A stretch of DNA of 64,000 nucleotides from a virus (taxonomy: Duplodnaviria > Caudoviricetes). This document shows, one piece after another, positions 51,218 to 58,978 of this stretch. The DNA lies in the IMG/VR virus record IMGVR_UViG_3300048503_000032, positions 42,773-106,772 of that record; one strand, written 5' to 3'. The number at the start of each line of letters is the position of its first letter. The first letter of the stretch is position 1. The position numbers were made by a program, and so were the translations under genes. The notes beneath the pieces were generated by a model. That model did not search any database. It was given only the letters and a program-made list of their open reading frames with translations, and was not told the origin of the DNA.

Positions 51218-52840
51218 GTGGTGTTCTACTTCGTCGGTATCCTATTTCGATTTCGAGGTTCGTCAATGAGCGTGACTGGCATCTCCCGTATGGTGGATTC
51301 GTGCAGCGACATGGTTCACAAGAAGGCAATCAAAACTTACCAGCATATTGCTCCGGAGAATAAGCGTTGGATCGACCTCGAAGACGTGATCCAAGAGGGT
51401 TTGATTAAGGCGTGGGAAACCGAGCAGTCTTACACGCAGCACTGGGCAGAGTCTGACGCACCGACTCATTTCAAGAGCAAGTTTTCGACCTACCTATTCC
51501 GTGGACTCGACATGCTGTTCTCTGGCCGGTACTCGATTCCGTTGAGCGCGCGTAAGCGGGTTACCAAGTTGGTCGAGTTGGATGCGCCGATCGGTGGCGA
51601 GGACGGCGCTTCCCACATCGATATCCCATCGCATAATGTATCGCCAGAGAGAATGTTTCAGGCTATCTCGGGTGTGGTGCAGGTCTGCTACGCTATTCCG
51701 CCGGCGGCGCTGTCGTTTCTGCTGGGCGTGATTGTCTCGGATGCGGGCAGGATTAGACGACGGACAGCGAATGACATAGCATGTATTCCAGATGCATGTT
51801 CCAGGTTTGGGGTCACTCGGTACGACTTAGAGTTGATCATGGGCGATCTGGAGTCGAAGAGCAGAGTGCTGGAGAGCGTGATGGCGGCAGATGCGAAGTT
51901 GGGCGAGGACGATGTCAAGGTGCTGGAGTGTGTGACGTGCCGGGGGATGTTCTCTCTGGGCGATGTCAGGACGGGCAATTACTCGGTGACCAGTCTTACC
52001 TGCCATGCATGTTTGAAGAAATTGTACGAAGAATCGGACAGCAGCTCTTGCTTTGGACGCATGAAAGTGGTATACAATAACAAGACGGCGACAGAGGGTT
52101 ACTCTGAAGCCGATACAGAATGCAGACTTCATTGTAGGGATCGTGCAGCATGTAGGAAATTCATCAAGGAAGGTAGGACGAATATGACACCTGAGAAAGT
52201 TGCCAATATGGAATTCGATCTGGAAGATGTAGACCTGAGCAACATCGAGGCTGCGGAACCCGTGGCCACCACAACCAAACCTGCGAAGAGCAGCAGCAAG
52301 AAGGCCGCAGCCAAGGCACCGGCGAAGACCGTAACCAAGGCAGTGAAGAAGGCGGAGCCGGTCAAGGCAGCGAAGAAAGCGGAAGCTCCCAAGGCCGATA
52401 AGACAGCAGTCAAGGCACCGGCGAAGGTGGCGACGAAGAAAGCGGCCAAGCCCGAGGGCGAGAAGCATGTGCGGACTGCCAAGTCCACGGCCAAGATCGA
52501 TCCGAAGGTGGCCAAGGCGCAGGGACTCATCAAGCTCGACGACCAGGGCCGCGACCTGCCGTTCAAGCAGGGATCAACGATGCGGTATTGTCTGGAGCAG
52601 GCGCTGGCTCCGGGCGGCGTGAAGGAGAAGGATCTGGAGAGGGAGCTGACCAAGCTCGGGTATTCGTATCCGTTGCAGCGGTCTGTCCTGATGTCCGGCA
52701 AGAGCGGCGACAGTTCGTTCAGACCCTACCCCAGCACGCATGTGTGGAAGGCTGAAGTGAAGGGCGACCGAATCATCGTGTCGGACGTTAAACGGATCGC
52801 TTTTTATCACAAGATGGCGCGCATTCAGTCTGCGAAGTAA
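51218..52840 (+). CDS. Sigma-factor region 2-like domain + Cys-rich domain + Lys/Ala-rich histone H1-like region (start uncertain; internal start likely at 52184)
   Basis: DLEDVIQEGLIKAW...KFSTY; CVTC, CHAC, CFG, CRLHC; KKAAAKAPAK repeats. Confidence 0.7.
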   Translation: MVFYFVGILFRFRGSSMSVTGISRMVDSCSDMVHKKAIKTYQHIAPENKRWIDLEDVIQEGLIKAWETEQSYTQHWAESDAPTHFKSKFSTYLFRGLDMLFSGRYSIPLSARKRVTKLVELDAPIGGEDGASHIDIPSHNVSPERMFQAISGVVQVCYAIPPAALSFLLGVIVSDAGRIRRRTANDIACIPDACSRFGVTRYDLELIMGDLESKSRVLESVMAADAKLGEDDVKVLECVTCRGMFSLGDVRTGNYSVTSLTCHACLKKLYEESDSSSCFGRMKVVYNNKTATEGYSEADTECRLHCRDRAACRKFIKEGRTNMTPEKVANMEFDLEDVDLSNIEAAEPVATTTKPAKSSSKKAAAKAPAKTVTKAVKKAEPVKAAKKAEAPKADKTAVKAPAKVATKKAAKPEGEKHVRTAKSTAKIDPKVAKAQGLIKLDDQGRDLPFKQGSTMRYCLEQALAPGGVKEKDLERELTKLGYSYPLQRSVLMSGKSGDSSFRPYPSTHVWKAEVKGDRIIVSDVKRIAFYHKMARIQSAK

Positions 52841-52866
52841 TCGGCCGGCAAGCTGGTTAGGTTGGC

Positions 52867-52901
52867 GAGGTCATCCTAGAGATGGGATGGCCTCACTTTT
52901 T
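52867..52901 (+). terminator. Intrinsic terminator insulating the tRNA array
   Basis: GAGGTCATCCT-agagat-GGGATGGCCTC-ACTTTTT. Confidence 0.85.
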
Positions 52902-52938
52902 ACTTGCAGGAATATCGAGTCTGTGGTGTACTCAATAA

Positions 52939-53014
52939 AGCGGCCGAGTGATGATGGCTTCACGCCAGTCTCATAAGCTGGAAATCGGCAGTTCGACTCT
53001 GCTGGCCGCTACCA
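52939..53014 (+). tRNA. tRNA-Met/Ile2 (CAT), upstream of attenuator 1
   Basis: AGCGGCC/GGCCGCT, CCAGT-CTCATAA-GCTGG, TTCGA, CCA. Confidence 0.88.
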
Positions 53015-53028
53015 TTAGGAGTACGGAA

Positions 53029-53112
53029 ATGAAGATGCAGTTATCCAGTTCGCGCTATCTCTCGTCACTCGATTGCCTGAGTGCGAGTCGGCGTGTTCTG
53101 GATCAGACTTAG
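53029..53112 (+). CDS. Leader peptide 1 MKMQLSSSRYLSSLDCLSASRRVLDQT
   Basis: AGGAG RBS; L/S/Y/D/C codons match block 1 tRNAs. Confidence 0.85.
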   Translation: MKMQLSSSRYLSSLDCLSASRRVLDQT

Positions 53113-53164
53113 CAAGAGATGATCTGAAGCACACCGACCCGCCAGATGGCGGGTTTTGTTGTTT
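53083..53164 (+). terminator. Attenuator 1: antiterminator 53083-53142 versus terminator 53136-53164
   Basis: GTCGGCGTGTTCTGGATCA pairs with TGATCTGAAGCACACCGAC; ACCCGCC-agat-GGCGGGT-TTTGTTGTTT. Confidence 0.85.
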
Positions 53165-53241
53165 GCGGGGATACGCAAATCGGCAAAGCGGGGATTCCTA
53201 AAAAGTCCTGTCTGCGGGTTCGAGGCCCGCTCCCCGTACCA
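53165..53241 (+). tRNA. tRNA-Leu (TAA), C33
   Basis: GGATT-CCTAAAA-AGTCC; CCA end. Confidence 0.8.
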
Positions 53242-53243
53242 GG

Positions 53244-53318
53244 GCACGACAAGACAATCGGATAGTCGGCAGACTGCAAATCTGCTCTTGTCCCGTTCGA
53301 CTCGGGAGTCGTGCTCCA
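53244..53318 (+). tRNA. tRNA-Cys (GCA)
   Basis: GCAGA-CTGCAAA-TCTGC; U73; CCA. Confidence 0.9.
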
Positions 53319-53336
53319 GTTCTTTGACAATTGATT

Positions 53337-53414
53337 GCGCTGGTGACGGGAATAGGAATACCTATCAGGTCGAGAGCCTGGTGATTGTGGGTTCGAGGCC
53401 CACCCAGCGCACCA
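53337..53414 (+). tRNA. tRNA-Leu (GAG), C33
   Basis: TCAGG-TCGAGAG-CCTGG; CCA. Confidence 0.85.
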
Positions 53415-53417
53415 TGT

Positions 53418-53494
53418 GCCGGTGTATGCAAATAGGCAAAGCAGCTTCGCTTAGAACGAAGTGTTTGGGGGTTCGATTCCCTTCACCGGTACCA
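53418..53494 (+). tRNA. tRNA-Leu (TAG)
   Basis: CTTCG-CTTAGAA-CGAAG; CCA. Confidence 0.9.
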
Positions 53495-53500
53495 AGTTTG

Positions 53501-53581
53501 GCCGATGTACGCAAACAGGCAAAGCGGCGAAGCTCAAAACTTCGTGATTGACTGTCGGTTCGATTCCGACCATCGGCACCA
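53501..53581 (+). tRNA. tRNA-Leu (CAA)
   Basis: CGAAG-CTCAAAA-CTTCG; CCA. Confidence 0.9.
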
Positions 53582-53586
53582 AGTAT

Positions 53587-53680
53587 GATGGGATGGCTGA
53601 GCGGCTGAAGGCTCTGGTTTGCTAAACCAGCGCACCTCTTTATCGGGGTGTCGTGAGTTCGAATCTCACTCTCATCGCCA
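53587..53680 (+). tRNA. tRNA-Ser (GCT)
   Basis: CTGGT-TTGCTAA-ACCAG; long variable arm; CCA. Confidence 0.93.
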
Positions 53681-53684
53681 GTTT

Positions 53685-53773
53685 GGAGGGTTGGCCGAGT
53701 GGCTGAAGGCACTAGTCCTGAAAACTAGAATACCGAGAGGTATCGCGGGTTCAAATCCACGCACCCTCCTCCA
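53685..53773 (+). tRNA. tRNA-Ser (TGA), C33
   Basis: CTAGT-CCTGAAA-ACTAG; long variable arm; CCA. Confidence 0.88.
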
Positions 53774-53777
53774 TTTC

Positions 53778-53869
53778 GCAAGCGAGGACAGATACGGTTG
53801 GCTGCACCTGACTGTAAATCAGGATCCTCTTCGAGGACATTGGGAGTTCGAATCTCTCCGCTTGCACCA
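53778..53869 (+). tRNA. tRNA-Tyr (GTA)
   Basis: CCTGA-CTGTAAA-TCAGG; long variable arm; CCA. Confidence 0.93.
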
Positions 53870-53873
53870 GTTT

Positions 53874-53947
53874 GGTTTCGTCGTTCAATGTAGGATGCTC
53901 CCTTGTCAGGGGATAAGATGCGGGTTCAAGTCCCGTCGAAACCGCCA
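53874..53947 (+). tRNA. tRNA-Asp (GTC)
   Basis: TCCC-TTGTCAG-GGGA; G73; CCA. Confidence 0.88.
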
Positions 53948-53959
53948 TAAAATTAGTTG

Positions 53960-53988
53960 TTGCATTTCAAGGGAACGTATGGGAAGCT
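53960..53988 (+). promoter_or_regulatory. Candidate promoter for tRNA block 2
   Basis: TTGCAT-17 nt-GAAGCT with TGn extension; weak -10. Confidence 0.45.
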
Positions 53989-53998
53989 AGGAATCGAT

Positions 53999-54070
53999 AT
54001 GAAGCATCTGGCGACAACGCGCGCGTTCCCAACCCAGGCACAACAGCCGGGTGGTAATCGTATGCGCTAG
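53999..54070 (+). CDS. Leader peptide 2 MKHLATTRAFPTQAQQPGGNRMR
   Basis: Codons match all 13 block 2 tRNAs; stop abuts antiterminator. Confidence 0.85.
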   Translation: MKHLATTRAFPTQAQQPGGNRMR

Positions 54071-54072
54071 TC

Positions 54073-54140
54073 GCTGGGGTTTTATGCGCGAGGATTCTCG
54101 CAGAACATACACCCTGGCCAACCAGCCAGGGATTTTTATT
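54073..54140 (+). terminator. Attenuator 2: antiterminator 54073-54118 versus terminator 54112-54140
   Basis: GCTGGGGT/ACCCTGGC outer stem, TATG/CATA, GCGAG/CTCGC; CCCTGGC-caacca-GCCAGGG-ATTTTTATT. Confidence 0.88.
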
Positions 54141-54163
54141 GCTCGGTATCTCAATTGATTTGA

Positions 54164-54250
54164 TGGGGTGTGCCCGGAACGGTATCGGCCTCGGCTGTTA
54201 ACCGAAGTGCTCAAAAGAGGATGGGGGTTCGACTCCCTCCGCCCCAGCCA
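54164..54250 (+). tRNA. tRNA-Asn (GTT), enlarged variable region
   Basis: TCGG-CTGTTAA-CCGA; G73; CCA. Confidence 0.85.
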
Positions 54251-54263
54251 GTATAATGGGAGG

Positions 54264-54854
54264 ATGAGAAAAGATATCCAAGCAGCGGGTACTAAGGCTT
54301 CGGCGGCGTTATCAAGACAGAAAGCTATTGATCTGTATTCCGAGAGTCCGAATCGATGCTTACAGTGTTTAGCTGTGATTGAGTTGCGTGGACGTAGGTC
54401 TTCTATTGTTAGGCGACAGAAGTTTTGCTCACATGGATGTGCTGGCAGTTACAACAACAGTCGCTTTCCGAAGCGTAAGCCGGAAGGTCAGTGTGAAGGA
54501 TGTGGGACACCGATAAGGGCGTGCTTGAAGTATTGCAGTCATAAGTGCAGGGCAAAATATCGTAGGCATAGAACGCGAGAAGAAGTGGCGGCTGGGAACG
54601 TGCAGGCTGTGATCGGTTGGAGGACGCGAACTAAGGATAAGGCGGTTGCATACAAGGGAGGAAAATGTTGCCGATGCGGTTACGACAGATGTGTCAGGGC
54701 ATTGGATTTTCACCATGTAGATCCTTCCAAGAAAGATTTTGCGGTAAGCAGGGTTTCAAAGTCGTGGGCGGTAATTAAGGCGGAGTTGGATAAGTGTATT
54801 TTGCTGTGCTCCAACTGTCACCGAGAGTTTCACGACGGGATGTGGAAGATGTAA
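54264..54854 (+). CDS. HNH endonuclease with Zn-finger repeats (free-standing homing type)
   Basis: CCRCG...ALDFHH...CILLCSNCHREFH; TATAAT 6 nt before ATG. Confidence 0.9.
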   Translation: MRKDIQAAGTKASAALSRQKAIDLYSESPNRCLQCLAVIELRGRRSSIVRRQKFCSHGCAGSYNNSRFPKRKPEGQCEGCGTPIRACLKYCSHKCRAKYRRHRTREEVAAGNVQAVIGWRTRTKDKAVAYKGGKCCRCGYDRCVRALDFHHVDPSKKDFAVSRVSKSWAVIKAELDKCILLCSNCHREFHDGMWKM

Positions 54855-54862
54855 GAGATTGT

Positions 54863-54937
54863 TCCCCGTTCGTTCAAATGGGAGGACGCAATCCTCTGAA
54901 GATTGTCATGGTGGTTCGAGTCCATCGCGGGGAACCA
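54863..54937 (+). tRNA. tRNA-Gln (CTG)
   Basis: CAATC-CTCTGAA-GATTG; CCA. Confidence 0.9.
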
Positions 54938-54944
54938 GAATTAT

Positions 54945-55054
54945 CGGGAGCTAGTGTAAACGGCCTGAGCCAGAGCCCTACGGGACGGAATGCTCAAAGC
55001 ACGGAGCGCATGGGGCGCTCTAGTGCGAGACTGGCAGCCTCGCAATCCCGACCA
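54945..55054 (+). ncRNA. Aberrant tRNA-like RNA (Pro-like acceptor, expanded D region, no TTC loop)
   Basis: CGGGA/TCCCG-A-CCA; GAGCG-CATGGGG-CGCTC; TGCGAG/CTCGCA stem. Confidence 0.6.
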
Positions 55055-55061
55055 AGTTTGA

Positions 55062-55135
55062 TCGCTAGTCGTTCAACGGTAGGACGGATGGTGTTGACCC
55101 ATCAGATCAGGGTTCGATCCCTTGCTGGCGATCCA
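55062..55135 (+). tRNA. tRNA-Gln (TTG), G33
   Basis: GATGG-TGTTGAC-CCATC; CCA. Confidence 0.82.
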
Positions 55136-55146
55136 GAAGTTGTAGT

Positions 55147-55220
55147 GCGGAATCGGTGTGACGGTCGCATGGAATCTTGCCGAGATTCGGGCGAGGGTTC
55201 GACTCCCTCATTCCGCTCCA
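55147..55220 (+). tRNA. tRNA-Gly (GCC)
   Basis: GAATC-TTGCCGA-GATTC; U73; CCA. Confidence 0.9.
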
Positions 55221-55226
55221 GTTTGT

Positions 55227-55301
55227 GCCGGTGTAGCTTAGATGATAGAGCGTCGCACTCGTAACGCGATGACCCCGGTTTGATTCCGGGCACTGGCTCC
55301 A
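55227..55301 (+). tRNA. tRNA-Thr (CGT)
   Basis: TCGCA-CTCGTAA-CGCGA; CCA. Confidence 0.88.
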
Positions 55302-55312
55302 GAAAGGTAAGG

Positions 55313-55870
55313 ATGATGAGAAATGTGATGCGCAGTCCGGTGCTGGTGCTGAATGCGTCATACGAGCCGTTGCACATCTGTGCTGCGCGTCGTGCTCTTA
55401 CGTTGATCGTGAAGGACTGCGCTGTCATTCAGCATGACACTGGTCGGCAGGTTCATGTCGGCATAATGTTTCCTTCAGTGATTCGGCTGAAGCGTTACGC
55501 GAGGGTTCCGCATCGCGCTCAGGAGATGACGAGAAAGAACATCCTCATGCGCGACGACTATCGGTGCCAGTATTGCGGAGAGGTGTTCTCAGGTGCGGAG
55601 TTGACGCTTGATCACATACTTCCGCGGGCACAGGGCGGTTTATCGACGTGGGAGAATCTGGTGGCTGCGTGCGGTGAGTGTAACCGGCGCAAGGGCAACC
55701 AGACTCCCGAAGAGGCGGGTATGCCTTTACTGAGGCGTCCCAGGCCGGTCACGCTGCACACCGCTCGCGGGATCTTGCGGGCACAGGCCAGTGACGAGAA
55801 GGTGTGGCAGAAGTATCTGTTTTATGACAACGCAGGTTGCCAGGAAGGAGTCACGTTTGGGCCGTCGTAG
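55313..55870 (+). CDS. HNH endonuclease (McrA-like, VLVLNASYEPL family)
   Basis: RDDYRCQYCG...TLDHILP...GG..TWENLVAACGECNRRK. Confidence 0.92.
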   Translation: MMRNVMRSPVLVLNASYEPLHICAARRALTLIVKDCAVIQHDTGRQVHVGIMFPSVIRLKRYARVPHRAQEMTRKNILMRDDYRCQYCGEVFSGAELTLDHILPRAQGGLSTWENLVAACGECNRRKGNQTPEEAGMPLLRRPRPVTLHTARGILRAQASDEKVWQKYLFYDNAGCQEGVTFGPS

Positions 55871-55936
55871 CTCGTATGGAAGAGCACTCGCTTGGTAAGC
55901 GAGAGGTAGCGAGTTCGACTCTCGCAGGCGGCTCCA
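55861..55936 (+). tRNA. tRNA-Thr (GGT)
   Basis: CTCGC-TTGGTAA-GCGAG; CCA. Confidence 0.9.
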
Positions 55937-55940
55937 GTTT

Positions 55941-56012
55941 GCCGGTATCGCATGGTGCTGAGTCTCATTTGTAACGAGACTCTTACGGGTTCGATTCCTG
56001 TTGCCGGCCCCA
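55941..56012 (+). tRNA. tRNA-Thr (TGT), reduced D arm
   Basis: TCTCA-TTTGTAA-CGAGA; CCA. Confidence 0.78.
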
Positions 56013-56019
56013 AAGATGT

Positions 56020-56095
56020 GGAGAGGCTGGCAGAGTGATTATGCGCCGGTCTGTGGAGCCGGTTTACATCGGTTTGATCCCGATGCCTCTCCCCA
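56020..56095 (+). tRNA. tRNA-His (GTG)
   Basis: G-1:C73; CCGGT-CTGTGGA-GCCGG; CCA. Confidence 0.9.
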
Positions 56096-56100
56096 ACAAG

Positions 56101-56170
56101 TCCGGAGACGTAGGGTTCGATGCCTACTCGTCATAGAAATGTGGCGGTCGTCTAGTGGCAGGATACCGGG
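56101..56170 (+). ncRNA. Circularly permuted tRNA-like element (3' half precedes 5' half)
   Basis: TCCGG-agac-T arm-TCGTCAT, 6-nt linker, GTGGCGG-D arm-CCGGG; halves pair in acceptor and anticodon stems. Confidence 0.6.
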
Positions 56171-56186
56171 GCTATGAATACAATTC

Positions 56187-56266
56187 GGGGCGTAGGACTA
56201 CATGCGGTGGTCGCTTCTCTTGCAAAGAAGATATTCAGGTGGGTTGGATTCCCGCACGCTCCACCA
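56187..56266 (+). tRNA. tRNA-Ala (TGC)
   Basis: G3:U70; CTTCT-CTTGCAA-AGAAG; CCA. Confidence 0.88.
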
Positions 56267-56272
56267 AGTTTT

Positions 56273-56348
56273 GCTGCTTGCGTAGGTCTGGTGATTACGC
56301 TGGTCTGAAAATCCAGAGAACGCAGTTCGATTCTGCGAGGCGGCACCA
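56273..56348 (+). tRNA. tRNA-Phe (GAA)
   Basis: CTGGT-CTGAAAA-TCCAG; CCA. Confidence 0.88.
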
Positions 56349-56353
56349 AGTAT

Positions 56354-56427
56354 CGGGGTAGGGTGTGACGACCGCATCCTAGTTTTGGGAACTAGTGGAT
56401 CGGGTTTGACTCCCGGTGCCCCGACCA
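56354..56427 (+). tRNA. tRNA-Pro (TGG)
   Basis: CTAGT-TTTGGGA-ACTAG; C1:G72, A73. Confidence 0.88.
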
Positions 56428-56431
56428 TTTA

Positions 56432-56507
56432 CGGAGAGTGGCCAAGAGGAAAGGCTCCAGTTTCGGGAACTGGGAATTCGTGAGTTCGAGTCTCACCTCT
56501 CCGACCA
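56432..56507 (+). tRNA. tRNA-Pro (CGG)
   Basis: CCAGT-TTCGGGA-ACTGG; CCA. Confidence 0.92.
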
Positions 56508-56513
56508 GAGTTT

Positions 56514-56589
56514 GTCCCTTTGGTGAAATGGAATATCACACGAAGCTACGAACTTCGAGTTGCGGGTCTGAGTCCCGCGGGGGGCACCA
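56514..56589 (+). tRNA. tRNA-Arg (ACG)
   Basis: CGAAG-CTACGAA-CTTCG; CCA. Confidence 0.88.
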
Positions 56590-56598
56590 TTTTAGAAG

Positions 56599-56628
56599 TT
56601 GCATCCCACGCTGGAGAGATGGTATGGT
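56599..56628 (+). promoter_or_regulatory. Candidate promoter for tRNA block 3
   Basis: TTGCAT-18 nt-TATGGT with TGn; embedded in an inverted repeat. Confidence 0.55.
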
Positions 56629-56694
56629 TTCTCCAGTGCAACAAAAGCATGAATGCTCCGGCCCGGAGGGTAAGTTGGGCACGAATTGAAATCC

Positions 56695-56769
56695 ATGAGA
56701 CAGACCTTCAAACACGAGATAACCATTAGGCGCGCTGAAAAGCGGGTCATGTGGGGGATCGTGTTTTAA
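56695..56769 (+). CDS. Leader peptide 3 MRQTFKHEITIRRAEKRVMWGIVF (may start at TTG 56686)
   Basis: Codons match all 13 block 3 tRNAs; TAA overlaps first base of antiterminator. Confidence 0.85.
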   Translation: MRQTFKHEITIRRAEKRVMWGIVF

Positions 56770-56825
56770 GGGGTCTGCGCTGTGGTACCACCAGACCCCT
56801 CGCTCAGTGCGAGGGGCTTTTTATT
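56769..56825 (+). terminator. Attenuator 3: antiterminator 56769-56800 versus terminator 56796-56825
   Basis: AGGGGTCTG/CAGACCCCT perfect 9 bp; CCCCTCGC-tcagt-GCGAGGGG-CTTTTTATT. Confidence 0.9.
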
Positions 56826-56845
56826 GTTCTTTGAGATGATGATGT

Positions 56846-56915
56846 GCCGGGTGATCTGAGATCAGGTGAGCCTCCAAATCTCGCCAGCTAGGTTCGATTC
56901 CTAGACCTGGTGCCA
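56846..56915 (+). tRNA. tRNA-Trp (CCA), reduced D arm
   Basis: loop CTCCAAA; CTAGG-TTCGATT-CCTAG; G73; CCA. Confidence 0.8.
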
Positions 56916-56916
56916 C

Positions 56917-56988
56917 GGCTCGTACCTCTGGCGAGGACGCAGGACTCATAACCCTGTTCACTGAATTCGATTTTCAGGCGAGCCACCA
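56917..56988 (+). tRNA. tRNA-Met/Ile2 (CAT)
   Basis: CAGGA-CTCATAA-CCCTG; CCA. Confidence 0.8.
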
Positions 56989-56989
56989 T

Positions 56990-57084
56990 AGAGGACAGCA
57001 CCGACGTGCGGCGGAGTCTTATAAACTCTGGAAAGGCTGCGGACTGCGGCTAACGGGAGGGATTGACACCCTCGTCCTCTACCA
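56990..57084 (+). tRNA. tRNA-Ile (TAT) with long variable arm
   Basis: AGAGGAC/GTCCTCT; GGAGT-CTTATAA-ACTCT; atypical T loop; CCA. Confidence 0.75.
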
Positions 57085-57085
57085 T

Positions 57086-57162
57086 GCCTCGATAACTCAA
57101 TCGGTTTAGAGTCCTGCCTCTTAAGCAGCGAGACCCAGGTTCGATTCCTGGTCGGGGCACCA
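57086..57162 (+). tRNA. tRNA-Lys (CTT)
   Basis: CTGC-CTCTTAA-GCAG; CCA. Confidence 0.92.
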
Positions 57163-57168
57163 AGTTTC

Positions 57169-57245
57169 GGAAGCGTAACTCAACGGGTTCAGAGTCTCGC
57201 CTTTTAAGCGATGAGACGGGGGTTCGAGTCCTCCCGCTTCCACCA
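57169..57245 (+). tRNA. tRNA-Lys (TTT)
   Basis: TCGC-CTTTTAA-GCGA; CCA. Confidence 0.92.
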
Positions 57246-57246
57246 T

Positions 57247-57321
57247 GCAGCCGTCGTCCAACGTATAGGGCATCGATCTTCTAAATCGAGGACGTGAGTT
57301 AGACTCTCACCGGCTGCTCCA
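57247..57321 (+). tRNA. tRNA-Arg (TCT)
   Basis: TCGAT-CTTCTAA-ATCGA; CCA. Confidence 0.88.
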
Positions 57322-57327
57322 TTTTAT

Positions 57328-57401
57328 GGCGCGTTCGTTCAACGGCAGGACATCGGTTTTTCACATCGAGAACAAGAGTTCGACCCTCTTACGCGCTACC
57401 A
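57328..57401 (+). tRNA. tRNA-Glu (TTC)
   Basis: TCGGT-TTTTCAC-ATCGA; CCA. Confidence 0.9.
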
Positions 57402-57407
57402 AGTTTT

Positions 57408-57483
57408 GCCGTGATCCGCCAAGCGGCTAGGCGACTGGATTCTCACTCCAGCAATCCGAGTTCAAGCCTCGGTCACGGTACCA
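57408..57483 (+). tRNA. tRNA-Glu (CTC)
   Basis: CTGGA-TTCTCAC-TCCAG; CCA. Confidence 0.9.
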
Positions 57484-57485
57484 GT

Positions 57486-57561
57486 CACTCTGCGGTGAAA
57501 TTGGATATCACGGTGCTCTCCGAAGGCGCAGTTTCGAGTTCGAGTCTCGACGGGGTGACCA
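57486..57561 (+). tRNA. tRNA-Arg (CCG)
   Basis: GTGCT-CTCCGAA-GGCGC; CCA. Confidence 0.88.
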
Positions 57562-57570
57562 TCAAGTTTC

Positions 57571-57645
57571 GCTCCCTTCGTTCAGTGGACAGGACGATGA
57601 CCTCCTAAGTCGTAGACGGCAGTTCGACTCTGCCAGGGAGTACCA
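57571..57645 (+). tRNA. tRNA-Arg (CCT)
   Basis: ATGAC-CTCCTAA-GTCGT; CCA. Confidence 0.92.
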
Positions 57646-57649
57646 GATT

Positions 57650-57727
57650 GCAAGCGTGGGCCAGCGGCGACGCCGCCTCTCCTACAAAGAGGAATTACCG
57701 GAGGTTCGAGTCCTCCCGCTTGCACCA
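57650..57727 (+). tRNA. tRNA-Val (TAC), C33
   Basis: CCTCT-CCTACAA-AGAGG; CCA. Confidence 0.85.
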
Positions 57728-57790
57728 GTTCGTTCCCGTCATCCAGCGGCTAGGATGATCGCCCGATTAGCTTATGGTATATTCGAGTTT

Positions 57791-58267
57791 ATGAAGAGGA
57801 AGCCTTGTTGCCGCTGTGGGTCTACTAAGAATGTGATGGTCAAGGGGCATGCTTACTGCCGTGTGTGCAATAACGCATACAGTAAGAAATATTACTATGC
57901 TGATCGTGAGGGACGCCTCGCAAAGATTGCGGAGTATGTGCGGAAGTTGCGTCTTCGTAGGAAAGCGTTGATTAACGACTTGAAGAGTCGTCCGTGTGTT
58001 GATTGCGGTAGGACTTTCCCGGCTGTTTGTATGGATTTTGATCATCTAGACGGTACGAATAAGCAGGGTTGTGTCAGTTCTATGGTGAACAATACTGGAG
58101 CTTCTCTAAAGCGTGTGATGGCAGAGATAGCCAAATGCGATTTGGTTTGTGCGAATTGCCATCGTATTCGAACGCATCATCGTACGGTAGCTCAACAGGT
58201 AGAGCATGCGCTTGATAAGCGCAAGGTAGTTGGTTCAAGACCAACCCGTACGACCAAGATTAGATGA
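57791..58267 (+). CDS. HNH endonuclease (free-standing homing type)
   Basis: CVDCG...MDFDH...CDLVCANCHRIRT; 3' end runs through tRNA-Ile. Confidence 0.88.
   Translation: MKRKPCCRCGSTKNVMVKGHAYCRVCNNAYSKKYYYADREGRLAKIAEYVRKLRLRRKALINDLKSRPCVDCGRTFPAVCMDFDHLDGTNKQGCVSSMVNNTGASLKRVMAEIAKCDLVCANCHRIRTHHRTVAQQVEHALDKRKVVGSRPTRTTKIR
58181..58256 (+). tRNA. tRNA-Ile (GAT)
   Basis: TGCGC-TTGATAA-GCGCA; CCA. Confidence 0.92.
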
Positions 58268-58299
58268 GGGAGTTCGAGTCTGAGCGGGAACACCAATAT

Positions 58300-58374
58300 G
58301 CGGGCATAGCCAAGTGGAAAGGCATGAGGTTTCCACCCTCACATGCGCCGGTTCAATCCCGGCTGCTCGCTCCA
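58300..58374 (+). tRNA. tRNA-Gly (TCC)
   Basis: TGAGG-TTTCCAC-CCTCA; U73; CCA. Confidence 0.92.
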
Positions 58375-58429
58375 TATTCCCTCTTGACGGCCATCAGGTC
58401 GTCTATAGTGGTGTCAGGAGGGTAAAACG

Positions 58430-58978
58430 ATGCGCTACGTTCGTCTACACGGGGTTGTTGGGGCTGTGGTGGTGGGTTTCCTTGCCGGCGGGCTGGCGCT
58501 GGCTCAGCAGGCGGTCTACGGGCATTCTCAGGGTAAGTTTCTACCAGATCCGAAGGTCACCCCTGGGGCGGTCGACCCGAGCCTGGTGGCGGATCTGACG
58601 AAGGCTCCACACATGGTGGCCGGCGTCGAGCATAATATCTGTGCCGCGGACTTCAGGACTCCGCCGTTTCGGGTGGCCACCAAGAGCCAGAAAATCAAGA
58701 CGGCGGTCTGTAAGGCTTACGGCATCCTGAATGGATGCCCTGGGTCACAATGGGAGTTGGATGACATCATCCCGATTGAGGTTGGCGGGCAGAATATACA
58801 GATCAATCTTTGGCCGCAGAACATAGGCGAGGCTCGGGTCAAGGATCATCAGGTGGAGGACTTGCTTGGAGGCCCGAAGGGTTTGGTCTGCCGCGGGAAG
58901 ATCAGTCTGTCGGATGCGCAGTCGTGCATCGTGAATGATTGGACGGCTTGCGCTGTTCGGATCGCCGCGCTGAAGTAA
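58430..58978 (+). CDS. Signal-peptide-bearing HNH-like protein
   Basis: Hydrophobic N-terminus ending ALA; LPDPKVTPGA, ELDDIIPIEVGG..NLWPQ (first His replaced by Asp). Confidence 0.7.
   Translation: MRYVRLHGVVGAVVVGFLAGGLALAQQAVYGHSQGKFLPDPKVTPGAVDPSLVADLTKAPHMVAGVEHNICAADFRTPPFRVATKSQKIKTAVCKAYGILNGCPGSQWELDDIIPIEVGGQNIQINLWPQNIGEARVKDHQVEDLLGGPKGLVCRGKISLSDAQSCIVNDWTACAVRIAALK

Follow-up and report, generated by a model that had tools for sequence, protein, structure and literature searches.

The window analysed here, 64,000 nt of viral DNA sourced from peat or soil samples, is the final 64 kb of a 106,772-bp IMG/VR virus record with an estimated completeness of 91%. All of its large genes lie on the + strand. 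A tRNA array occupies 52939-58374, with 30 tRNA genes called by default ARAGORN, four more by a relaxed run, and three inserted HNH-type ORFs. Three spacers within this array each combine a small ORF with an intrinsic-terminator-like hairpin, and the second of them lies at 53960-54140. Its features, with those of the sister spacers and of the tRNA blocks behind them, are as follows.

53960..53988, + strand: putative promoter, with a -35-like TTGCAT (53960-53965), a 17-nt spacer and a weak -10-like hexamer (53983-53988)
53989..53992, + strand: possible Shine-Dalgarno AGGA, 6 nt upstream of ATG 53999
53999..54070, + strand: leader ORF 2, 23 codons plus TAG (54068-54070); homologous ORF at L014:9834-9932
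53999..54015, + strand: region 1, 5' strand of the predicted 1:2 hairpin (anti-antiterminator), pairing with about 54071-54086
54073..54080, + strand: region 2, antiterminator 5' strand GCTGGGGT, from the predicted fold
54088..54101, + strand: inner hairpin of 5 bp within the predicted antiterminator, not competing with the terminator
54111..54118, + strand: region 3, antiterminator 3' strand, including the terminator 5' arm (54112-54118)
54112..54140, + strand: predicted intrinsic terminator, with a 7-bp G+C-rich stem, a 6-nt loop and a T-rich tract (54132-54140)
54164..56589, + strand: block 2, the proposed regulated block, 13 tRNA genes from ARAGORN and Rfam: Asn-gtt 54164, Gln-ctg 54863, Gln-ttg 55062, Gly-gcc 55147, Thr-cgt 55227, Thr-ggt 55861, Thr-tgt 55941, His 56021, Ala 56187, Phe 56273, Pro-tgg 56354, Pro-cgg 56432, Arg-acg 56514
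53029..53164, + strand: candidate sister attenuator 1, leader 53029-53112 and terminator 53136-53155; behind it block 1 (Leu x4, Cys, Ser x2, Tyr, Asp)
56695..56826, + strand: candidate sister attenuator 3, leader 56695-56769, antiterminator 56769-56777 with 56791-56799, terminator 56796-56816; behind it block 3 (Lys x2, Glu x2, Arg x3, Val, Ile, Gly-tcc, Met, probable Trp)
L014:14252-14376: homolog of attenuator 3

We defined block 2 as the tRNA genes from the terminator at 54112-54131 up to the next leader-type spacer. Two HNH-type ORFs (54264-54854 and 55280/55313-55870) interrupt it. Default ARAGORN and Rfam called ten of the 13 tRNAs, and relaxed ARAGORN added Thr-tgt (55941-56012), Ala-tgc (56187-56266) and Pro-tgg (56354-56427). 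All three additions form regular cloverleaves whose acceptor stems are 7 bp long, and all three encode the CCA; the Ala-tgc gene carries the G3:U70 pair. Thr-tgt scored 28.6 bits in Rfam against a threshold of 29; Ala-tgc and Pro-tgg were called by relaxed ARAGORN only. A further relaxed call, 'Leu-cag' at 55400-55470, would bring the leader 2 match described below to 22/22; we treated it as false because it lies inside an HNH ORF.

Leader 2 contains 22 sense codons after its initiator ATG at 53999. ACA, ACG, ACC, CCA, CCG, CAA, CAT, TTC, AAT, GCA and CGT occur once each, CAG, GGT, GCG and CGC twice, and AAG (codon 2), CTG (codon 4) and an internal ATG (codon 22) match no block-2 tRNA. Under conservative wobble rules, block-2 tRNAs read 19 of the 22 codons and 13/13 of these tRNAs are covered, with a Watson-Crick codon present for each of the three Thr, two Pro and two Gln isoacceptors. 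In the sensor zone, codons 2-21, 18 of 20 codons are read. The earlier note had given the same codon list, which reading the sequence confirmed, and its counts of 13/13 tRNAs and 19/22 non-initiator codons both held when recomputed with the ARAGORN/Rfam calls and conservative wobble rules.

Block 2 decodes 36% of the codon usage in the phage's long ORFs. Against that usage, at least 19 matches in 22 codons has a binomial P of 1.5e-6, and simulated ORFs attained 13/13 coverage at a frequency of 2.9e-4. We also scored the 368 small ATG ORFs that the 107-kb genome has in its six frames: leader 2 was the only one to reach both of its own values for block 2, and leader 3 the only one to reach its own for block 3. 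Two other candidate starts were dropped: TTG 53957 in spacer 2, which lengthens the leader 2 frame and overlaps the proposed -35, and ATG 56650 in spacer 3, whose ORF has ~8/25 block-3 codons, about the 30% background.

Each leader matches the block immediately behind it. Counted against blocks 1/2/3, matching codons number 15/6/3 in leader 1, 1/19/2 in leader 2 and 0/7/14 in leader 3. We held the leaders fixed and re-dealt the 35 tRNAs into blocks of the original sizes over 200,000 trials, a test that is somewhat generous because it ignores isoacceptor clustering. The diagonal held 24.9 +/- 4.3 codons (maximum 46) as against 48 observed, a value reached in 0/200,000 trials, and 17.7 +/- 2.5 tRNAs were covered (maximum 30) as against 34 observed. 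Restricting the test to default-ARAGORN tRNAs gave the same picture (40 observed versus 20.9 +/- 3.9; 0/200,000). The various tests agree: the codon match of the leaders to their own downstream blocks is real and non-random.

Between leader 2 and tRNA-Asn, a terminator scan returned a stem-loop (54112-54131) followed by ATTTTTATT, 33 nt upstream of the tRNA gene. Its predicted energy is -14.2 kcal/mol (z -4.16; 0/200 shuffles as good). The antiterminator fold, in which 54073-54080 pairs with 54111-54118 together with two inner stems, reaches -20.4 kcal/mol (z -3.13), and the 1:2 hairpin, from a fold of 53996-54090, reaches -41.0 kcal/mol (z -2.98; 1/200 shuffles as good). The earlier note had put the end of the TAG 2 nt before an antiterminator strand that competes for the terminator. 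The coordinates agree (TAG end 54070, strand 54073-54080), and in the predicted fold the strand's partner, 54111-54118, takes in the whole terminator 5' arm. Because strands for 1:2, 2:3 and 3:4 were all found, the classical attenuator layout is complete, its three mutually exclusive helices all present as predicted folds.

At equilibrium the terminator was favoured at every ribosome position (P 0.55-1.00), and in the full untranslated RNA the 1:2 hairpin forms and then the terminator, with P(terminator) 0.99. Since equilibrium folds always favour the terminator, antitermination would have to be kinetic. The same is true of the trp attenuator, where the terminator likewise wins at equilibrium and antitermination is kinetic. 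Equilibrium folding is thus uninformative for the switch, so we folded the RNA as it stands before the terminator 3' arm exists, extending it only up to the terminator loop and masking the mRNA as far as 12 nt beyond the first base of the A-site codon. With the A-site at codons 2-21, the terminator 5' arm was sequestered upstream with P 0.83-1.00, and this probability fell to 0.74, 0.52 and 0.30 at codon 22, codon 23 and the stop. A ribosome at the end of the ORF weakened the competing fold from -20.4 to about -8 kcal/mol, compared with -14.2 kcal/mol for the terminator. The step was stable for footprint edges of A-site+11 or more and blurred at +9 and +10, where a tight footprint (first free nucleotide at A-site+9/+10) let the stop-codon ribosome leave a partial competitor (P 0.72/0.52). 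In this model, and depending on the footprint, a ribosome stalled at codons 2-21 would free region 2, and one at the stop codon would mask it.

Predicted folds give attenuators 1 and 3 the same three-helix layout and ribosome-dependent behaviour. The antiterminator 5' strand of attenuator 1 lies within the 3' end of its leader ORF, and that of attenuator 3 overlaps the stop by one base. Region 1 of leader 3 coincides with several of its non-matching codons (codons 3-5), and the L014 homolog shares these codons exactly.

Upstream of leader 2, the -35-like TTGCAT at 53960 stands 39 nt before ATG 53999, and a TTGACA stands equally far before the homologous leader in L014, a related phage contig described below. 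In L015, a more distant array, two leaders lie behind clear promoters (TTGACA or TTGCAT, N17, TATACT). From -35 to ATG, both L015 leaders measure 37 nt and L014 leader 1' measures 35 nt. Considered as a promoter word, TTGCAK occurs 113 times genome-wide versus about 49 expected, an excess short of decisive. The putative promoter at 53960-53988 failed a sigma-70 consensus scan. If it is real, the leader mRNA would be leaderless or nearly so and the AGGA at 53989 would be untranscribed; both the promoter and the resulting leaderless mRNA are read from sequence. An SD core was found for 35 of the phage's 78 long ORFs. Further downstream, a promoter-like site at 54229-54257 (10/12 matches) could drive most of block 2 independently, which counts against gating.

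We propose that 53960-54140 is, quite probably, a ribosome-mediated leader-peptide transcription attenuator, by which expression of 13 tRNA genes depends on the supply of those same tRNAs. This reading, already put forward in the earlier note, is supported by the block-specific codon/tRNA match, by predicted 1:2/2:3/3:4 helices that depend on ribosome position, by conservation and covariation in relatives such as L014, and by recurrence elsewhere. Translation of leader 2, the site of transcription start, kinetic pre-emption of the terminator and tRNA shortage as the signal are steps that we infer. Transcription would start just upstream of ATG 53999, and a ribosome would translate the 23-codon leader behind the moving RNA polymerase. 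When all aminoacyl-tRNAs are available, the ribosome would reach the TAG at 54068-54070 and cover 54073-54080; the terminator hairpin at 54112-54131 would then form and transcription would stop before tRNA-Asn. Scarcity of any tRNA read in codons 2-21 would stall the ribosome upstream, 54073-54080 would pair with 54111-54118 before the terminator 3' arm is made, and the polymerase would enter the tRNA block. Newly made tRNAs would relieve the stall, closing a negative feedback. On RNA free of ribosomes, the first codons of the ORF would pair with 54071-54086 and the terminator would form. Leader 2 has one or two codons per block-2 tRNA and none of the runs that characterise his, leu and phe leaders; with so few leader codons per tRNA, it is doubtful that a mild shortage would be sensed.

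We searched for relatives of the locus by several routes, and close ones proved rare. Megablast against 50,697 GenBank phages returned no close DNA relative, and its distant mode gave single-tRNA matches only. The 540-aa upstream and 355-aa downstream proteins, as single queries, had no IMG/VR match; exact 21-22-mers of leaders 1 and 2 had none either, and a scan of genome contigs for relatives of the flanking proteins returned nothing. An alignment of homologs of the 355-aa protein, which occur at 62-96% on long Logan and ENA contigs, led to two IMG/VR and seven metagenome loci. Among these, tRNAs were present in L004 only; L003, a complete 119-kb relative, has no tRNAs. A homolog alignment of the HNH ORF at 54264-54854 led to 80 IMG/VR loci, 57 of which carry 5-30 tRNA genes.

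One of the arrays recovered in these searches, on the 103.7-kb IMG/VR phage contig L014, has the same three blocks with anticodon order almost unchanged. Its tRNAs are only 64-83% identical to those of the window, near the level between unrelated tRNAs. In the leader 2 homolog, nucleotide identity is concentrated in the first ~21 codons. Beyond the homology, the L014 leader runs for 11 more codons with a different antiterminator strand and then an unrelated 10-bp terminator, and its predicted switch is alike: sequestration has P 0.70-0.87 at codons 2-21, then 0.57, 0.31 and 0.24. The leader-by-block diagonal recurs, with 10/23, 20/31 and 13/25 matching codons and tRNA coverage of 7/7, 11/11 and 11/13, and every off-diagonal entry has P > 0.8.

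The two arrays also differ in a way that bears on leader content. In the window, tRNA-Asp is the last gene of block 1, and leader 1 has two GAT codons and leader 3 none. In L014, tRNA-Asp lies in block 3, and an Asp codon is absent from leader 1' and occurs once in leader 3'. The Asp codon thus covaries with the block position of tRNA-Asp. Terminator 3 shows matched 2-nt changes in both arms between the window and L014.

In L015, Trp lies in the first block and a TGG codon in the first leader; its Asn codons do not track tRNA-Asn, which counts against the rule. The metagenome contig L004 is 92% identical, and tRNA-Met, leader 1 and terminator 1 are retained on it at about 96% identity. Leader 1 of L004 has one inserted codon and two amino-acid changes; its terminator has a different loop on a preserved stem, and the two substitutions in its antiterminator 1 preserve or add pairs. 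Only three non-orthologous tRNAs (Leu-taa, Ile-gat, Gly-tcc) remain behind this leader, so the leader-tRNA match is broken there, with at most 2 of 27 codons matching. We take L004 to have undergone a recent replacement of the cassette, and count it against a strict rule.

We then screened 55 other non-redundant IMG/VR tRNA arrays, drawn from the loci recovered with the HNH ORF, for ATG ORFs of 14-45 codons in spacers of at least 90 nt. The codons of each ORF were scored against the next three or more tRNAs, and a mispaired control used the tRNAs of another locus. At P < 1e-4, eight stop-distinct sense ORFs from eight loci stood out, against one in the antisense control and one in the mispaired control; at P < 1e-5, the numbers were three, none and none. 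The screen therefore holds at least 8 further codon-matched leaders, versus 1 in each control. Peptides and blocks are unrelated among the loci, and the arrays include some with very AT-rich upstream regions and G+C-rich ones like the window. One leader, at L027:8960-9049, precedes an Asn/Ile/Val/Cys/Thr block with 10/10 tRNAs covered. A family of homologous leaders is shared by L025, L031 and L041. In five of the best matches, predicted sequestration of the terminator arm drops when the ribosome moves into the final 10-12 codons. No convincing leader came from three cultured phages (Acinetobacter D22, Klebsiella RaK2 and Escherichia HMD-P10); the best candidates from cultured phages lie within an annotated holin gene, without a terminator, and were rejected. 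At the level of sequence, these results indicate that the codon-matched leader design is widespread in uncultured phages.

The same evidence bears on other accounts of the spacer. Leader 2 might be translated and sense block-2 tRNAs while its output is something other than termination, namely RNase access or processing, Rho loading or transcript stability, with the hairpin a plain terminator or processing signal of the upstream block. The codon match is equally compatible with this, and equilibrium folds favour the terminator throughout. In addition, tRNA-Asp ends only 51 nt upstream of ATG 53999, so processing and translation would take place on one RNA. We nevertheless consider such an output unlikely: 2 nt separate the stop from a strand able to sequester the entire 5' arm of the terminator, a 1:2 helix makes the classical layout complete, and L014 and five unrelated arrays build the same geometry from unrelated sequences.

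Less probable still, and by our estimate quite improbable, is a self-contained small-peptide gene lying between tRNA blocks, with a function of its own, codons that reflect dependence on phage tRNAs (a timer, for example) and no downstream control. Such a gene would fit an ORF flanked by a promoter-like -35 and a terminator, and an N-terminal stretch of 21 residues that is partly conserved in L014. What is conserved, however, is a codon list and not a peptide that could fold, L014 has another 3' part of the ORF with the switch logic kept, and 23 residues are too short for Pfam or any other protein family. Moreover, the window has three different peptides, each mirroring only the block just downstream, and unrelated peptides in other phages likewise match their downstream tRNAs. 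Finally, an untranslated spacer with an ordinary terminator and an accidentally matching open frame is barely credible: small ORFs are abundant (132 of at least 20 aa in 7.5 kb) and ORF and block boundaries were picked after data inspection, but leader 2 has its P of 1.5e-6 and rank 1/368 among genome ORFs, the three-leader diagonal arose in 0/200,000 re-partitions, and the match is replicated in L014 and, with controls, in other arrays.

The role of phage tRNA genes has been debated for ~fifty years, with codon compensation, host tRNA decay and escape from tRNA-cleaving defences all proposed (PMC10264068, PMC11555353). If the attenuator reading is true, a leader that lists the isoacceptors encoded behind it would let the phage measure decoding capacity codon by codon and make tRNAs on demand, and such a codon-indexed leader is a direct, testable statement on the purpose of phage tRNA genes. 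The reading would explain why the tRNA genes are ordered into blocks. It would also extend leader-peptide attenuation to a regulated product that is RNA and to a multiplexed sensor, with 13 inputs in 20 codons, and would supply a compact natural module with which single tRNA pools could be monitored. More tentatively, and as a possibility that we put somewhat short of even, many phage tRNA arrays may be demand-driven operons with block-wise codon-indexed leaders that register, for each isoacceptor, whether decoding in the infected cell still works. Replacement tRNAs would be switched on at depletion of host tRNAs, for instance by an anticodon-nuclease defence or host shut-off (context in PMC10264068, PMC11555353); the leaders would then be the sensor of a counter-defence circuit, and the principle a general rule for block organisation.

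Leader-peptide attenuation has well-known bacterial precedents, some multivalent, such as thr (Thr and Ile) and ilvGMEDA (Ile/Leu/Val), and others devoted to a single amino acid (trp, his, leu, phe). Like these, attenuator 2 has a short ORF enriched in regulatory codons and, by prediction, three exclusive helices ending in an intrinsic terminator, with ribosome position deciding among them and an untranslated RNA that terminates. Unlike the enterobacterial leaders, which have codon runs for one to three amino acids, attenuator 2 lacks such runs and lists up to 13 isoacceptors, mostly once each, to the wobble position. It would regulate tRNA genes and not biosynthetic enzymes, its tRNA product is proposed to relieve the stall directly, and it is phage-encoded, with three units in series. 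The Rfam leader families (His, Thr, Leu, Trp) gave no match at E up to 1, so that the likeness to them is one of working only; the pheL leader is described in PMC3082878. Full-text literature searches found no publication on leader-peptide attenuation of tRNA genes, and two recent papers on phage tRNAs do not mention it. Attenuation as control of tRNA genes is most likely a variant of the known leader-peptide mechanism, apparently undescribed for such genes.

Three further systems link translation components or tRNA status to gene expression. E. coli pheST, with its pheM leader, is a component of the translation apparatus attenuated through a leader peptide by the supply of charged tRNA; its target is an aminoacyl-tRNA synthetase, it responds to one amino acid and it is chromosomal, in contrast to attenuator 2. 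In a T-box, a specifier codon and the T-box sequence contact uncharged tRNA directly, and neither ribosome nor ORF takes part; as proposed for attenuator 2, the T-box links tRNA status to terminator read-through before translation-related genes. Searched at E up to 1, the stretch 52700-58600 gave no match to the T-box model (RF00230). Closest among published cases is the trn operon of Anabaena PCC 7120, a long tRNA array (L-array), which is silent until translation is impaired (PMC8421152) and is controlled by the DNA-binding repressor TrcR (PMC10272220). The words attenuation, leader and terminator are absent from these two papers. The L-array resembles the phage array in carrying accessory tRNAs and an internal homing-endonuclease gene, and its expression is tied to translational stress.

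The tRNA array behaves as a swappable cassette with fixed anchors on either side. Comparison of window 52860-58374 with L004:3555-4100, from a 92%-identical metagenome contig, revealed that tRNA-Met, leader 1, terminator 1 and the downstream flank are all retained in L004. Between these flanks, L004 carries only three tRNAs, none orthologous to those of the window, versus ~35 in the window. Because both flanks persist around such different contents, the array acts like an exchangeable unit.

Three endonuclease ORFs lie within the array:

54264-54854, HNH or treble-clef endonuclease ORF
55280-55870, HNH or treble-clef endonuclease ORF
57755-58267, HNH or treble-clef endonuclease ORF

Homologs of the first strongly mark phage tRNA arrays. 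Alignment of these homologs retrieved 80 IMG/VR loci, 57 of which have 5-30 tRNAs within 10 kb.

We also located promoter-like elements along the array. A -35-like hexamer, TTGCAT or TTGACA, sits 35-39 nt upstream of several leader ATGs (window 53960, 56600 and 52906, and leaders of the diverged phage L014 and the more distant array L015), which suggests that the leader mRNAs are leaderless and that each block has its own promoter. TTGCAK is itself ~2.3-fold over-represented on the genome + strand. The top sigma-70-like match of the array (10/12) falls at 54229-54257, in the 3′ end of tRNA-Asn and immediately upstream of the first HNH ORF, a putative promoter that could drive the remainder of block 2 outside the control of attenuator 2. 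Directly upstream of the array lies one further ORF:

51218-52840, 540-aa ORF

A single-query search found no IMG/VR relative of this ORF and it has no Pfam match; by eye, its N-terminal part looked sigma-factor-like.

Several genes of the array depart from standard tRNA form. The 87-nt tRNA-Asn at 54164-54250 carries a long extra arm, unusual for Asn, and this form is conserved at L014:10004-10090 with 83% identity. Two irregular tRNA-like genes gave no normal ARAGORN call:

56846-56915, tRNA-like gene with a CCA (Trp) anticodon loop
56995-57085, tRNA-like gene with a TAT anticodon, a fully paired 7-bp acceptor stem and a long extra arm

At the position of the first, L014 carries a normal tRNA-Trp; the second is missing in L014.

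A homologous leader family with a high content of codons for Ile, Asn, His, Met, Ser, Trp and Arg occurs in several other IMG/VR arrays:

L025:8614-8712, leader
L031:7909-8010, leader
L041:11017-11115, leader

The blocks downstream of these leaders consist of exactly the tRNAs for those seven amino acids. The contigs carrying the family have AT-rich upstream regions, and the family offers good material for a covariation study.
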